DNA of 64,000 nucleotides. Source: Candidatus Kerfeldbacteria bacterium. GTDB lineage: Bacteria; Patescibacteriota; Patescibacteriia; SBBC01. This document shows, piece by piece, positions 112 to 19,475 of the stretch. Made by a program: the position numbers and the translations under genes. Position 1 is the first letter of the stretch, and each line of letters opens with the position of its first letter. The DNA lies in contig JACQPY010000009.1 of NCBI GenBank assembly GCA_016207275.1, positions 27,637 to 91,636 on the forward strand, given 5' to 3'. The notes below the pieces were generated by a model that worked only from the letters and a program-made list of their open reading frames with translations, did not search any database and was not told the DNA's origin.

Positions 112-1110
112 CTATTGCTGCCAAATCCAATACTCATTCAGCGCGTCTTCTTGTATTTTGTGTGTGTTGCCGTGACTGAGTAAACCGAGGTATGACTGCA
201 ATGTTTCGGCGGTGGAATGTTCTTTGATTCGCCGAATCATCCGATGCTTGGTTGTAGTTCGTAAGGTTCGATGATACGGATAGTGTTGCCAGCCGAGAAA
301 GTCAACGCCGGAAGCTAGTGTTTTGATGTGAATCTTATCCGGATGTAGTAGCAAAGCAAGCTTGTCGTTCAAGAATTGTTCAATCAGGGGGATTTGATCT
401 TTTAGCCATGCGCGGTCGTTAGAAAGGAAAACAAAATCATCAGCGTATCGGATATAGTATTTTGCTTTCAATCGGTGCTTCACAAATTGGTCAAACTCGT
501 TCATATAGATATTTACAAGTAGCTGTGACGTGAGGTTACCAAGTGGCAAGCCTTTCCCTAGCTGAGTATGAAAACTGGCAATGATGTTTTCCAATAACGC
601 TAGAATGTCTTTATCAGGAATGTACTGACGCAGTATCCCATTCAAGATGTTCTGGTCGATGTTAGCAAAAAACTTTCGGATGTCGCATTGCAATACCCAA
701 CATGTACGAGTGTTATTTTTGCCAACGCTTCCTGCCATACTCTTGAAGCGCTGTAGTGCTTTATGTCCTCCTTTGTTTACACGACACGAATAGGAGTCAG
801 CGATAAATGTTCGATCAAAGAATGGGTAAAGTTTCCGGTACACTGCGTGGTGGAGCAATCGGTCTTGAACGCTGGCTTTGTGAATATGCCGTGGCTTGGG
901 ATCGGTTATGTAAAAACTTTCGTATCCACTGTGTCGATAGGTCCGATTGGCAAGATCATCGTGAAGCTGTAAAATACTATCCATCAGATGGAGGCTGAAG
1001 GCTTGGACATCTGTGGCTTGTCGTTTACCTCGAAGAAACTCTTTCCACGCCGTCAGTAGATTCTCAGCCGAGATAATATCGTCGTATTTGAGTGGTAATT
1101 CGGCTTTCAT
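112..1110 (-). CDS. Diversity-generating retroelement (DGR) reverse transcriptase
   Basis: 332-aa ORF with RT motifs: N-terminal LxxAWxxFLRGKR, motif 4 variant LGNLTSQ (DGR-specific I/LGxxxSQ instead of group-II QGxxxSP) and YADDFVF catalytic motif. GC is about 40% against about 60% for the window. Lies next to TR/VR/avd. Confidence 0.9.
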   Translation of the reverse strand: MKAELPLKYDDIISAENLLTAWKEFLRGKRQATDVQAFSLHLMDSILQLHDDLANRTYRHSGYESFYITDPKPRHIHKASVQDRLLHHAVYRKLYPFFDRTFIADSYSCRVNKGGHKALQRFKSMAGSVGKNNTRTCWVLQCDIRKFFANIDQNILNGILRQYIPDKDILALLENIIASFHTQLGKGLPLGNLTSQLLVNIYMNEFDQFVKHRLKAKYYIRYADDFVFLSNDRAWLKDQIPLIEQFLNDKLALLLHPDKIHIKTLASGVDFLGWQHYPYHRTLRTTTKHRMIRRIKEHSTAETLQSYLGLLSHGNTHKIQEDALNEYWIWQQ

Positions 1111-1494
1111 ATGGCTTATAAACCGCCCCCCCAGCTTTGGAGCAACTTACCAATTCTACAGAAAGCATCCGACGCCTACAAAATCTGGCACGGCATGCTC
1201 CAAGAGTTTCCCCGTCTTGATCGGTTTACGGTCGGCGCTAAGGTCGATAGTTTGTTCGGGGAAGTATTAGAGTATATTCTGCTGGCTGGGTATTCGCAGA
1301 AGCCGCATAAATTACCACTCGTACAGCGTGCTACAACCAAACTGGATGCTGTGAAGTTCTTTTTGAATATCGCTTGGGAAATCAAGTCACTTGATAACAA
1401 AAAATATATTCGTTTATCCACGCCTCTGACCGAAATTGGAAAAATGCTGGGTGGCTGGCGCAAACAGCTTCAAAACGAAACTCCCTCGGAATAA
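1111..1494 (+). CDS. avd: Avd (accessory variability determinant), DGR four-helix-bundle accessory protein
   Basis: 127 aa. Segments ILLAGYS, VKFFLNIAWEI and LTEIGKMLGGW parallel Bordetella phage Avd (FIVAGKS, LRFWLRFLAGI, IAEVGRILGSW). Start codon abuts the RT start codon on the opposite strand. Confidence 0.75.
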   Translation: MAYKPPPQLWSNLPILQKASDAYKIWHGMLQEFPRLDRFTVGAKVDSLFGEVLEYILLAGYSQKPHKLPLVQRATTKLDAVKFFLNIAWEIKSLDNKKYIRLSTPLTEIGKMLGGWRKQLQNETPSE

Positions 1495-1535
1495 ACCGAG
1501 GGAGCCTGCCTGCCGCTAGGCAGGCGTGAGAAGAA

Positions 1536-1662
1536 TTGCAGACGGCCACGAAGCGGCAGTTCCGATTCCACTGATTGTCAGTCCAGTTCCAGTTCAGCTT
1601 CACGCCGTTCTCATTGCCGTTGACGTACGCGCGGTTCAGGTTACCTTTGCGCTGCACGGCGG
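1536..1662 (-). repeat. DGR template repeat (TR), 127 nt
   Basis: Matches 2035-2161 over 127 nt with 21 mismatches. Twenty are at positions where this copy has T on the + strand, i.e. A on the minus (sense) strand. Translated it is Asn/AAC-rich (VQRKGNLNRAYVNGNENGVKLNWNWTDNQWNRNCRFVAVC), not a real gene. Confidence 0.85.
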
Positions 1663-1928
1663 CCGCCAGATTGTACAGCTTATCGTCCGTATCACTGCCC
1701 ATTGAATACTCTCCGGGCTGTATTTTATTCGGGAGCCTTTACTCCGCTGATAGACTGCACCAAGTATCCTCTTCTTTCGAGGGCGCGAGGGACGCGCTGT
1801 CTACAGCCGTAGCCATAAACATTCCGGTCATCTCAGCGTACTAGATTTCAACCGCCCACAGCCTTGACCGTGAGCCGTATCGTTTACTATCCGAATGTAG
1901 TATAGAAAAGTTTTGGAAAATAATGAAG

Positions 1929-1975
1929 GCCCTGCTCATCCCCTTCGCCGAAGCGTTAGAGATGAGACAGGGCCC
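1929..1975 (-). other. Inverted-repeat hairpin downstream of VR/target stop
   Basis: GGCCCTGCTCATC...GATGAGACAGGGCC (13-bp arms) lies about 60 nt 3' of the VR end, the position where DGRs carry a hairpin/cruciform that enhances homing. Confidence 0.5.
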
Positions 1976-2030
1976 GTGGCTGCAAGGATCAAAGGGAATA
2001 CAGAGTTCCCAGTGCCCGAGAGCCGAAGCG

Positions 2031-2666
2031 CTACTTGCAGACGGCCACGAAGCGGCAGTACCGACCCCACTGAAAGTCAGTCCAGTCCCAGTACAGCTTC
2101 ACGCCGACCTCATCGCCGAAGACGTACGCGCGGTCCAGGCCCCCTCCGCGCTGCACGGCGGGTCCGATGAGACCGATGACCGGATGCTCCCGAATCTGCT
2201 CGGAGGTATGCCGACGAATGACGGTCTCGGACTCGGCCCGATCCGGCTGGCGGCAGTTGAGCTGCGCCATCCTGTCGAGCACTTCCTGATCGAGCGGATC
2301 GTGGTCGAACTCCAACAGGCGGAACCTGACCGGCTTCGTCCCCTTCTCCGTGATCGGATAGTCCTTGACCTTCACGTCGCCGACGTAGGCGTAGCGGTCG
2401 CGGTCGATGGTGCTCCATTGAGGATCGTCGTAGTTGACGGTCATCTCGAAGGCATCGCCGACCAGTCCCGGAACACCGAACACGCCTTCGATGATCTGCT
2501 GAAGCGCGCGGGCAGTGGTATCCGGATCGAGCGGGCTACCCGATTCCTGTTCGAGCTGACGCTTGATTTCCGCCATTCGCCGGTCGATCACATCCTTCTG
2601 CTCGCTGGTGACAACGAACTTCGTCGCCATTCCAAGCCTCCTGTCATAGAATACGTTTACCGCCAC
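2031..2666 (-). CDS. DGR target protein with variable C-terminal CLec-like segment
   Basis: 211-aa ORF. Its last roughly 42 aa (AVQRGGGLDRAYVFGDEVGVKLYWDWTDFQWGRYCRFVAVCK) are encoded by the VR and parallel the TR translation. No signal peptide. The start may be the internal Met at MATKFVV. Confidence 0.75.
   Translation of the reverse strand: MAVNVFYDRRLGMATKFVVTSEQKDVIDRRMAEIKRQLEQESGSPLDPDTTARALQQIIEGVFGVPGLVGDAFEMTVNYDDPQWSTIDRDRYAYVGDVKVKDYPITEKGTKPVRFRLLEFDHDPLDQEVLDRMAQLNCRQPDRAESETVIRRHTSEQIREHPVIGLIGPAVQRGGGLDRAYVFGDEVGVKLYWDWTDFQWGRYCRFVAVCK
2035..2161 (-). repeat. DGR variable repeat (VR) at the 3' end of the target gene
   Basis: Cognate of the TR. Differs from it at 20 adenine-derived positions plus one non-A position (TR 1643 a versus VR c on the + strand). 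The 3' 22 nt of the sense strand (CTGCCGCTTCGTGGCCGTCTGC) is A-free and GC-rich, like an IMH element. It ends at the target gene stop codon. Confidence 0.85.
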
Positions 2667-3595: not shown

Positions 3596-4807
3596 TTAGT
3601 AATCCCGCAGCTTCTTCATGGCCCGGTGGGCCTGGATTTTCTCGAGCGCCTTGGCCTCAATCTGCCTGATCCGCTCCCGTGTGACGCCGAACTCCTGTCC
3701 GACTTCCTCGAGGGTGTGGGCAATACCGTCGTGGAGACCGAAGCGCATTTCCAGAATCTTCTGTTCGCGCGGACTGAGCTCACGAATAATCTCCTGGACC
3801 TGCTCGCGCAGCAGCTGCATGGCCGCCGCCCGATCCGGCGTAGTCGTCTTGACGTCTTCAATAAAGTCGCCCAGAACCGAGTCCTCTTCATCGGAATCGC
3901 CAACGCTGGTTTCCAGCGAGACCGTATCCTGGCTGATCTTGATAATCTGTCGAATCTTCTCCACATCCTCGCCCATTTCCGCGGCGATCTCCTCGGGCAG
4001 CGGTTCGCGGCCGAGGTCCTGGATCAACTGGCGCTCGACCTGCTGAAATTTGTTGATGGTTTCCACCATGTGGACGGGAATGCGGATGGTTCGGCTCTGG
4101 TCAGCGAGGGCGCGCGTAATGGCCTGCCGAATCCACCAGGTGGCGTAGGTCGAAAACTTATAGCCCTTCCGGTAGTCGAACTTCTCGACCGCCCGGAACA
4201 GTCCAATGTTGCCCTCCTGGATCAAATCGAGCAGCGACAGCGATCGGCCGGTAAACTTCTTGGCGATCGAGACGACCAATCGGAGGTTGGCTTCAACCAG
4301 CTTCTTCTGGGCTTCCACCTCGCCCCGGTCCTTGCGCTTGGCCAGCGAGACTTCTTCCTCAGTTTTGAGCAGCGGCACCTTGCCGATCTCCCGCAGGTAC
4401 ATCTGGATCGAATCGTTCGAAATGTCGCCGAGGTCGAAGTGGTGTTCCTCTCGCTTCTTTTTGCCCTTCTCGTCCTTCGGCGCCTCGCTCAATTGCTGCA
4501 GATGGAGATCAAGGACGCTGCCGCCGGTTTCCACAATCTTGACGCCGTCCTGCTCAAACCGATCGAGCAATTGCTCGTAGGTCTCGAGGTACTCCTCGAG
4601 ATCGGGTAGAGCGTAGAGCAGCTCGGTTTCGGTCACGAAACCGCGCGACCGACCCTTACTAATCAGTTCGTTAACCGCTTCTTGCGGCACCGCCGACTTC
4701 GATTTTTGGACGCGCGGCAAATGTGACCGCGCCTTAGCCTTTGACGCGGACTTCGGCTTAGCGGCCGGGACTCTCTTGATCGTCTTTTTGATTGGCTTGC
4801 GAACCAT
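3596..4807 (-). CDS. rpoD: RNA polymerase sigma-70 factor RpoD
   Basis: 403 aa with regions 1.2-4, including [40 protein letters not shown]. Downstream of dnaG as in the macromolecular-synthesis operon. Confidence 0.95.
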
Positions 4808-4818
4808 CGGTGGGGTAC

Positions 4819-6660
4819 TTATGCCTCGAGGGCGTGGAGTTCATCGGTCAACTGGTTGAGCTGTTTCAGCAGGGCGTCGGCGTGAGCGGTGGCGTGCGCC
4901 GCTTCAGCCTGACGGAGCTCATGTTCAAGGCGTCGGAGTTCATTGACGACGCGCTCGCGCCGGAGCAATCGACTGCCATGGCCAATCTCTTGCCGAAGCC
5001 ATGCGAGGCGAGCGGCATCATCGCCAGCCGACGCTTCACTACTCGAAAAATCCTGCTCGGCCAAGAGCATAACCTTTGCCACGCGGTTCGTGAGCAGTGG
5101 CAGCTCTTTCGCAAGGTACTTGCGGAACCCTTCGTGGTCTAGTTGCTGGACCTCACTATAATACAAAAGGGCCTGTCTGTAAAGGGCCTGCAGCTCTGGA
5201 TCGGGCAGCATGGCCGTATCGATCAGCTCAGTCAGGTAGGAAAACAGCTCCGGCCGTGTGAACAAACCGAGGGCCAGGATCCGTTCGGCTACGACCGTGG
5301 CGCGGTCAGCAAGCGTCAGCGGCGACTCGCCAGTCGACGGTGGCGGTGTCGGTCGCTGCCCTGGCCGCCTTCGCCGGAGGGCATCACGGAGCGCCTGCTC
5401 GTCGACACCGAGGCGAGCGCTCAATTCCTTGAGGTAGTGACTCTGTTCCACCGGGTCGGTCAGACGAGCGACCACCGGTAGGAGCTGCTGCGCAATCCGC
5501 TTCTTCCCGTCGACGTCAGTCGGATCAGCCGCGGCAAAGGCGCGGTTAAACGAGTAATCGACGATTCGTTCGGCGGTGGCGATCGCGTTACGCCACCGGT
5601 TCGGGTCACGACGAATCAGCTCGTCCGGATCTTTGGCGTCCGGCAGCGTAATAATGGTCACGCGCAGGTCAGCGGCCAGGGCCTGGTCAATACCGCGACG
5701 GGCCGCTTCACCGCCGGCCAGGTCAGCATCGAAGGCCAGCGCCAGGTTGTTCGTGTAGCGCTTGAGCATCTTAACCTGAGAGTTGGTCAAAGCTGTTCCC
5801 GAGACCGCCACCACATTGGCAACGCCAGCCTGATGCGAGGTCAAACAATCGAGGTAGCCCTCAACCAAAATGGCCAGGTCGGCTTGCTTGATCGCGCGCT
5901 TGGCGCGGTCGAGACCAAAGAGGACTCGGCTCTTACTGTAGACTAGTGTCTCCGGCGTGTTGATGTACTTGGCCGTTGACCCGACGTCGCCCTCGACCGC
6001 TTCCACAATCCGGCCGCCGAAACCGACCACCGTCCCGTTGACGTCCCGAATCGGGAACATTAATCGGCCGCGGAAACGATCATAGGAACCAATTCCTCGC
6101 TCTCGCTTAACCGTCAGTCCGGCCTCGAATGCTTCTTGTTCGGTAAACCCTTTCTTCAGGACGAACGACAGTAACCCATCCCACGTCGTCGGGCTATACC
6201 CCAAGATAAAATTTTCCGCTGTTTCGTCACTGACCCCGCGCTGACGAAGGTAGGTGCGGGCCGTCTCGGCGGACGCAGCATCGGTTAAGACTTTCCGGTA
6301 GAAGGCGGCGGCTAAACGGACAAGGTCGAGCAGTCGCGTCTTGGCGTCGTGCAGCTGCGGATCGATCGGCCGCAGCTCAATGTTGGCTTTCTTAGCTAAG
6401 AGGCGAAGCGCTTCGGGAAAATCAACGTTCTCGATTTCCTGCACGAACGAGAACATATCGCCGCCTTTGCCGCAGCCGAAGCAATGCCAGGCCTGCCGGT
6501 CTTTCGAAACCATCAAGCTTGGTGTCTTCTCGTTATGGAACGGGCAGAGGACCTTGTAGCGATTGGTGCCGGCCGGCTTCAGCTGGACGTACTCACCAAG
6601 CACCTCGGCAATGTCGAGTCGTTCTTTGATTTCATCAACCGGTGAGAAAGAAATTACCAT
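4819..6660 (-). CDS. dnaG: DNA primase DnaG
   Basis: 613 aa. N-terminal CHC2 zinc finger [30 protein letters not shown], then TOPRIM region. Confidence 0.95.
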
Positions 6661-19445: not shown

Positions 19446-19475
19446 GGGGCGCTTACGGAGTGAGCGGGGGGGAGA

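Follow-up and report, generated by a model that had tools for sequence, protein, structure and literature searches.

The left-end 4.2 kb of a 64-kb stretch of DNA from a Candidatus Kerfeldbacteria metagenome-assembled genome (MAG; contig JACQPY010000009.1, lineage Patescibacteria group) carries a diversity-generating retroelement (DGR), in which the gene for the accessory protein Avd lies between the template repeat (TR) and the reverse transcriptase (RT) gene and on the strand opposite to both. An earlier note on this DNA had called that layout non-canonical. We find that the element is very probably an ordinary DGR of the Architecture B3 type seen in the Candidate Phyla Radiation (CPR)/Patescibacteria, and that its cassette would be run as separate transcription units. 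The whole stretch that was analysed, at its full 64 kb, is called the window below, and the core elements of the DGR within it are as follows.

112..1110, minus strand: DGR reverse transcriptase gene, 332 aa, with a Pfam RVT_1 match (E=1.3e-20) and the motifs LGNLTSQ and YADD
1111..1494, plus strand: avd (accessory variability determinant), 127 aa, a predicted four-helix bundle, divergent from the RT gene
1536-1662, minus strand: TR, with 33 adenines on the minus strand
2035-2161, minus strand: variable repeat (VR), at the 3' end of the target open reading frame (ORF)
2031..2666, minus strand: target gene, 211 aa, in which Pfam, NCBIfam and PADLOC recognise no domain

The positions and strands that the earlier note had assigned to RT, Avd, TR and VR were all confirmed. 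In translation, the RT carries LGNLTSQ, which fits the [ILV]GxxxSQ pattern, and the catalytic motif YADD. When compared with solved structures, its best match was the RT of Bordetella phage BPP-1 (bRT; 8ub7_A, E=8.5e-38, residues 10-312), whereas group II intron RTs matched more weakly (3e-17). At least 8000 relatives were found at E<=1e-40, and an identical RT is recorded together with an identical Avd on a 106,399-bp contig of a Candidatus Kerfeldbacteria MAG. Judged by its sequence, the window RT belongs to the DGR clade. In public annotation this RT appears as a 'group II intron reverse transcriptase domain-containing protein' and Avd as a 'four helix bundle protein', and the locus is without a DGR label in the public record.

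TR and VR form a 127-nt direct repeat with 18 mismatches, 17 of which fall at TR adenines when the minus strand is read (A to G at ten sites, A to T at seven), and all 17 of these adenine-site mismatches are at codon position 1 or 2 of the target ORF. The VR ends 1 nt short of the target stop codon (2033-2031). Over their last 25 nt TR and VR are identical (ACTGCCGCTTCGTGGCCGTCTGCAA), with divergence beyond, and this GC-rich segment resembles the IMH/IMH* pair (initiation of mutagenic homing) of other DGRs. The sole difference at a site other than a TR adenine is a T to G change (1643 in TR, 2142 in VR) at codon position 3; non-adenine substitutions are frequent in CPR DGRs (Wu et al. 2018, PMC5758913). 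PADLOC returned no match for either Avd or the target, and targets of the Patescibacteria DGR clade are typically without recognisable domains (Roux et al. 2021, Nat Commun 12:3076). No further TR or VR copy, second VR or second target was found in the window. Elsewhere in the family, one locus (L036) contains a tandem pair of complete RT-avd-TR-VR cassettes (about 620-2580 and about 3990-5930), and in three others (L011, L028 and L030) one TR matches two VRs, that is, two targets.

The arrangement of these elements is one that has already been catalogued. In the scheme of Wu et al. 2018 (NAR 46:11, PMC5758913), Architecture B3 is TR-(avd)-RT, where parentheses denote the reverse strand, and 90% of their CPR DGR set is assigned to it. 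The window layout is Architecture B3, as the element order, the orientation of avd and the CPR host all fit, and an avd gene on the opposite strand is the normal, catalogued layout of CPR DGRs and not a new architecture. The description in the earlier note is therefore apt only relative to phage BPP-1. To see how far the layout extends, we used the Avd alignment as a query and collected 80 related loci from species-representative genomes (L001-L080) and 80 from metagenome contigs (L099-L178). Immediately upstream of avd, the opposite strand carried RT-homologous sequence in 79/80 genome loci and in all 53 metagenome loci that could be scored for RT orientation, which speaks against a chance arrangement. 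A TR/VR pair was detected in 67/80 genome loci, always with the TR antisense to avd; in these 67 the TR start is mostly no more than about 40 nt from the avd stop and the VR lies 440-510 nt further on. The window has corresponding spacings of 41 nt (avd stop to TR) and 499 nt (TR to VR), and the same order, orientation and spacing recur in about 150 related loci.

The junction between avd and RT is equally characteristic of the family. Bases 1108-1113 of the window read CATATG, such that the two start codons abut with 0 nt between them, just as had been noted before. Across the related loci the avd and RT ATGs overlap or are at most 3 nt apart in 106/129 cases: the commonest arrangement is a 21-nt overlap (ATGnnnCAATTGAATTTTCAT, 59 loci), a 2-nt overlap occurs in eight loci, and a gap of exactly 0 occurs in four, including the window. 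Abutting starts are a family trait, and because they are common to the family, the earlier conclusion that each promoter must lie inside the other gene holds and applies family-wide. We looked for an RT promoter within avd as suppressed synonymous variation and saw none beyond the codons for Pro5-7 and the last codons, with no conserved block at synonymous sites across the avd body. On the other side of the junction, -10-like hexamers peak about 140 nt upstream of avd, inside RT, across the family; as a candidate avd promoter this peak was rejected, because conserved RT residues (D-N-I), encoded with ordinary codon usage, account for it in full. The window itself has TTGGCA-17-TAAAAT at 947-975 on the plus strand (10/12 matches, 136 nt upstream of the avd ATG and inside RT), which is a weak lead for an avd promoter.

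The case for separate transcription units rests mainly on the DNA between the target gene and avd, where the minus strand carries a series of candidate RNA elements around the TR.

1915..1975, minus strand: long GC hairpin (1975-1927) and U-rich tail, a candidate terminator of the target gene
1899..1904, minus strand: -10-like hexamer TATACT; 6 nt separate it from the conserved GGAUAGUA with which the leader starts
1663..1892, minus strand: structured RNA leader, about 220 nt long and abutting the 5' end of the TR, with covariation and profile matches
1471..1504, minus strand: stem-loop CUCCCUCGG-UUUAUU-CCGAGGGAG (1504-1481) followed by the U-tract UUUCGUUUUG (1480-1471), a candidate Avd-binding stem-loop and intrinsic terminator

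The spacer of about 350 nt from the target stop to the TR is conserved at the nucleotide level, with nhmmer matches at no fewer than 40 loci, mostly near full length and with E values down to 1e-42. Read 5' to 3' on the minus strand, its alignment comprises an interrupted hairpin, a GC hairpin with a U-rich tail, an extended -10-like box and a segment of about 220 nt that runs into the TR. The GC hairpin is strongly folded in the window (dG -52.3 for a 122-nt region, z -4.8), and at the same place the family consensus has GCGGGG and then a run of T. The family -10 consensus is the extended form TGnTAnAnT, found 5-7 nt before a conserved GGATAGTAGA; at the latter position the window has GGATAG, at 1892.

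The leader is predicted to fold into two hairpins, whose loops are of the GGUUACGGCU type, and a 12-bp long-range helix (1760-1749 with 1684-1673), the end of which lies 10 nt short of the TR. RNAalifold returned 48 pairs, 42 of which show compensatory double changes. Across 43 sequences, 94.4% of cells were paired, compared with 72.5% after shuffling and 37-45% when partners were slid, and the covariation score was 0.728 versus 0.283 for shuffled and 0.11-0.17 for slid controls; 0/500 shuffles reached the observed values. A profile built on the leader had one match in the 64-kb window (1892-1671, minus strand, E 2.5e-48) and matched 77/80 genome loci and 70/80 metagenome loci. At its gathering threshold Rfam matched only a tRNA in the window, and at E<=1 it had no match within 1400-2100. 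On the strength of this covariation, the segment of about 220 nt 5' of the TR is a structured RNA, and by analogy this RNA may correspond, in CPR, to the spacer RNA of BPP-1, with a position upstream and not downstream of the TR.

A second element lies on the other side of the TR. The region 3' of the TR folds stably (dG -42.6 for 106 nt, z -4.5), and the stem-loop at 1504-1481 holds the avd stop codon (1492-1494) in its loop. A terminator-like stem-loop and U-tract within 100 nt after the TR was found in 37/69 loci, as opposed to 1/69 on the plus strand and 14/207 random windows. Stem sequences differ between loci while pairing is kept, and the offset of the stem-loop from the TR is 30 nt in the window and 3-25 nt in other loci. 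RNAalifold gave no consensus for this flank or for the region after the VR because MAFFT left the variable-length hairpins out of register, and per-sequence folding with controls was used for both instead. In BPP-1, Avd binds a stem-loop just 3' of the TR, and putative Avd-binding stem-loops, typically with 9-bp stems and tetraloops, have been described in 207/278 Avd-containing DGRs, CPR included (Handa et al., bioRxiv 10.1101/2023.10.23.563531). The conserved GGGAG-UUUC-UUUU of this element reads, in antisense, as the codons for the C-terminal K-E-T-P of Avd, and one stretch of DNA (1471-1504) seems to serve both the RNA element and the protein tail.

Together, these elements point to separate transcription units and an autonomous TR RNA of about 420 nt. 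In this model, the target gene would end at its own terminator, and an RNA of about 420 nt would start about 6 nt downstream of the -10 box TATACT (1904-1899), pass through the leader of about 220 nt and then the TR, and end at the stem-loop and U-tract that overlap the last codons and stop of avd, being convergent with that gene. Divergent transcription of avd and RT would start from promoters that each lie within the coding sequence of the other gene. RT and Avd would then assemble on the TR RNA, with Avd presumably bound, as in BPP-1, to the stem-loop just 3' of the TR, and would make an adenine-mutagenised cDNA that replaces the VR.

Two further hairpins border these elements in the window.

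1978..2024, minus strand: interrupted hairpin directly after the target stop, with CTTGG units that have an 8-nt period in the family
1508..1525, minus strand: extra 7-bp GC hairpin GCCUGCC-UAGC-GGCAGGC, between the TR and the conserved stem-loop, which most relatives lack

In 69 loci of the family the post-stop hairpin consists of roughly 6-bp segments split by TT/TT internal loops, and its variable 3-nt spacers look, by eye, complementary between the arms. Written as DNA (GCCTGCC-TAGC-GGCAGGC), the extra hairpin is the only such palindrome in the window, and the leader of locus L053 has an insertion of a similar one, CCTGCC..GGCAGG; the window palindrome could represent a small mobile element.

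A further family-wide feature lies at the start of avd itself. Most loci have a run of 8 to 12 cytosines (C8-C12) between the avd ATG and the helical body, encoding a conserved Pro-Pro-Pro, and the window carries a reduced form of it.

1123..1132, plus strand: CCGCCCCCCC, with a C7 run at 1126-1132, encoding Avd Pro5-Pro7; a short, in-frame form of the family tract

The window tract is a C7 preceded by CCG, which puts it under the 8-nt homopolymer criterion that was applied to the family, where C8-C12 is found in most of 122 relatives (69 genome and 53 metagenome loci). It is nevertheless the only C run of at least 6 in the 64 kb; the only other G/C homopolymers of at least 7 in the window are two G7 runs, at 19466 and 35166. 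Over all the fetched loci (1.03 Mb) there are 143 homopolymer runs of at least 8 C or G, about 138 of which are the avd tract.

Using the invariant Tyr23 as a frame anchor, we asked how the body of avd is connected to its start in the 122 tract loci. The body frame was open from the tract to Tyr23 in every case (69/69 and 53/53), whereas the two control frames were open in 27 and 41 of 69 genome loci and in 21 and 34 of 53 metagenome loci (48 and 75 of 122). An ATG upstream of the tract was in frame with the body in only 26/69 and 16/53 loci (42/122, 34%), and upstream ATGs were distributed over all three frames; 40 genome and 32 metagenome tract loci had no in-frame upstream start, and 16 and 14 loci, respectively (30/122), had no ATG, GTG or TTG anywhere in the body frame. 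Loci without the tract mostly keep an in-frame ATG (13/15 metagenome loci and most of about 11 genome loci). In two cases, near-identical loci differ by a single nucleotide: the tract of L095, with 9 C, is in frame and that of L096-98, with 10 C, is not, and L057 has 10 C where L046 and L145 have 9. L001, the locus of the genome collection that is closest to the window, is out of frame with a C10 run.

These frame breaks might have no regulatory meaning, with the tract a mere Pro-Pro-Pro motif, the breaks due to homopolymer errors in assembly and Avd started downstream. In keeping with this, an in-frame GTG or TTG is present downstream of the tract in 38/122 loci, a few of the assemblies are nanopore-based, and the window itself is in frame. 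However, a downstream start is not on offer in the 30 loci that have no body-frame start codon of any kind, and the fully open body frame, set against the control frames, and the in-frame ATGs of tract-free loci argue against this reading. Tract length was also constant within groups of loci that share an identical RT and come from different samples or sources, at 8 C (3 contigs), 9 C (5 contigs) and 9 C (6 contigs) among the contigs displayed, although all three groups are out of frame; identical lengths across samples and sources indicate that the breaks are not assembly noise. Finally, the codons point to selection of the run at the nucleotide level, as the third position is C in 96%, 96% and 67% of loci for the three tract prolines (CCC at 96%), while Pro34, which is equally conserved, shows no codon preference. 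We consider an explanation by motif and assembly error unlikely, though it retains some substance.

The alternative is that the tract may act on the frame of avd. The observations are equally compatible with DNA-level phase variation of avd, with transcriptional slippage or with ribosomal frameshifting on the CCC codons. Programmed frameshifting at an adjacent stop, of the prfB type, was rejected because zero-frame stops fall from 4 to more than 20 codons past the tract in out-of-frame loci. As the window tract is degenerate (C7) and in frame, at most a weak version of any such effect applies here. A literature search found no description of either the tract or the leader, though Paul et al. 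2017 (Nature Microbiology), who first surveyed CPR DGRs, may have mentioned one or the other. We put forward only tentatively, as a possibility that falls somewhat short of an even case, that avd is gated by a slippery or hypermutable poly-C tract, that the template RNA is autonomous with a structured 5' domain, and that both functions are real and previously undescribed.

Returning to how the cassette is transcribed, a number of points weigh against separate units. The -10 box of the window is without the TG extension and has no good -35 element. Only 54% of loci meet the terminator criteria and 46% fail them, and the U-tract is also the antisense of the conserved K-E-T-P codons of Avd, such that constraint on the protein and constraint on the RNA are confounded. 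No promoter was located for either RT or avd, and the RT is co-oriented with the TR, so read-through could still supply RT mRNA. In addition, BPP-1 is published to require about 140 nt of RNA 3' of the TR; if by analogy the same need applies to this DGR, its functional RNA has to reach into avd in antisense orientation.

Several of the same observations would fit a model that builds on the earlier note, in which TR and RT are co-transcribed as in phage BPP-1 and the DGR RNA runs antisense through the whole of avd, with antisense interference, or coupling, between the expression of avd and that of TR and RT. TR and RT share one orientation with only avd between them, an independent RT promoter was not found, a clear terminator is missing from 46% of loci, and the 140-nt requirement of BPP-1 calls for RNA beyond the TR. 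Set against this, the stem-loop and U-tract that follow the TR by 3-30 nt are strand-specific and strongly enriched, the conserved RNA structure lies 5' of the TR, and synonymous sites in the avd body are without the nucleotide signal expected from a 3' spacer RNA. Co-transcription of this kind therefore seems improbable to us. The geometry on which the earlier note relied is sound, in that a transcript from TR to RT would be antisense to avd, but as the main RNA such a transcript is probably not made, given the -10 box, leader and terminator-like element that the TR has of its own, and transcription of the TR probably need not run antisense through avd to reach RT.

Base composition offered another possible explanation of the layout. 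In the window, the RT and avd core has a GC content of 44-46%, 13 points under the 58% of the rest of the window, while the target (62%) and the TR are GC-rich; GC at third codon positions (GC3) is 0.47-0.50 in the core versus 0.69-0.80 in the target and the flanking ORFs 3596-4807 and 4819-6660. Such a jump could be read as a sign of recent horizontal acquisition of the core or of a chimeric assembly. We rejected it as such because the same pattern is found family-wide: at the median, the core lies 5 points below its flanks, the target 12.6 above and the TR 8 above, with the same sign across 64 related loci. Core GC tracks flank GC (r=0.84), the window falls at the extreme of the family range but inside it, and its TR matches the adjacent VR. 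Acquisition or chimerism is thus very unlikely to explain the layout.

The identity of Avd, on which the comparison with other DGRs depends, is well supported. The protein scored 48.2 bits against the Pfam family bAvd (PF22296; gathering cutoff 40) and 71.2 bits against the NCBIfam model DivGenRetAVD, which does not reach the curated equivalog cutoff of 80. It has 213 homologue matches, with E values down to 1e-58, and the alignment contains 16 invariant columns among 33 aligned members. A search of Protein Data Bank (PDB) sequences with the Avd profile gave no match, and a fold search on the predicted structure was used in its place. The AlphaFold model is confident (predicted local distance difference test, pLDDT, 90.4), has helices at 14-30, 35-61, 64-90 and 96-123, and superposed in Foldseek on BPP-1 Avd (4dwl) with template modelling (TM) scores of 0.76/0.89 and a root mean square deviation (rmsd) of 1.5 Å; across the Avd chains of 4dwl and 8ub7 the values were TM 0.74-0.76/0.85-0.89 and rmsd 1.5-2.0 Å. 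The protein is basic and has conserved basic residues: Avd has 13 Lys, 5 Arg, 5 Asp and 7 Glu, for a net charge of about +6, with K44, K67 and K82 invariant and K77, K92, K97, K98 and K111 conserved at 90% or more in the family alignment.

Two ways in which the assignment of avd had been expected to fail, a better Avd-like ORF on the minus strand and a lack of translation of 1111-1494, found no footing. The minus-strand ORFs 1382..1702 and 1176..1463 are without a significant Pfam match (TPR_3, at E 0.09, was the one hit below threshold), the spacer between TR and VR has no minus-strand ORF of 50 aa or more, and 1111-1494 itself belongs to a large, strongly conserved protein family. A chance ORF or decaying remnant, in a DGR that is Avd-free or served by another copy, would suit the NCBIfam score under its curated cutoff and the absence of a clear Shine-Dalgarno sequence ahead of the ATG, but is scarcely credible for an ORF that is intact, in frame with its own ATG and the only Avd ORF found, that exceeds the Pfam gathering cutoff, that has so many homologues with invariant columns, and whose predicted four-helix model fits BPP-1 Avd.

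Compared with known systems, the window DGR is closest to Architecture B3. It matches that class in how TR, avd and RT are ordered and oriented, in having one adjacent target, upstream of the TR, in its CPR host and in the lack of any further accessory gene, and nothing substantive separates the two. From other members of its own family it differs in a start gap of 0 nt (the mode being the 21-nt overlap), a shorter, interrupted C run and one extra hairpin. Roux et al. 2021 (Nat Commun 12:3076) describe a DGR clade 2 that is restricted to Patescibacteria, and like the members of that clade the window DGR is cell-encoded, has a CPR host and has a target without a recognisable domain; by this resemblance it is a putative clade 2 member.

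The comparison with BPP-1 (mtd-avd-TR-brt; PDB 8ub7 and 4dwl) is more mixed. Both systems have homologous RTs and, according to the predicted model, matching Avd folds, although the two Avd sequences are too distant for a sequence-profile match. They also share adenine-specific TR/VR differences at codon positions 1 and 2, a 3' segment, rich in GC and poor in adenine, that TR and VR have in common, and a stem-loop just 3' of the TR, and the post-stop hairpin of the window (1978-2024) occupies the same place as the post-IMH hairpin/cruciform of BPP-1. Unlike BPP-1, the window has its avd inverted between TR and RT, a U-tract directly after the 3' stem-loop and, in place of the characterised 140-nt 3' spacer, a TR with its own -10 box and structured 5' leader of about 220 nt.

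Homopolymer-tract contingency genes, which are phase-variable, occur in Neisseria, Haemophilus, Campylobacter and Helicobacter. The avd tract of the family resembles them in the position of its C8-C12 run between the start and the body of the gene, in the differing frames and in the 1-nt differences between near-identical loci. It is unlike them in that tract length is stable across several independent samples and in that the host is an uncultivated CPR lineage, and the window run, at only C7, preceded by CCG and in frame, departs further still.

Overall, the window locus is one more copy of the commonest CPR DGR layout, and the layout itself is not new. Two proposed features of the family may be new, a frame switch in avd and an autonomous template RNA, and the window carries the leader RNA in full and the tract only as a short, in-frame version. 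The leader and the 3' stem-loop and terminator define a compact template RNA that could be set directly against the BPP-1 model of RNA-controlled, self-primed reverse transcription. A frame-breaking poly-C tract in avd would be a built-in control of hypermutation: if the reading is correct, phase variation in tract length would act as an on/off switch, with the synthesis of Avd gating mutagenic retrohoming, or, alternatively, transcriptional or ribosomal slippage on the CCC codons would restore the avd frame and provide the gate.

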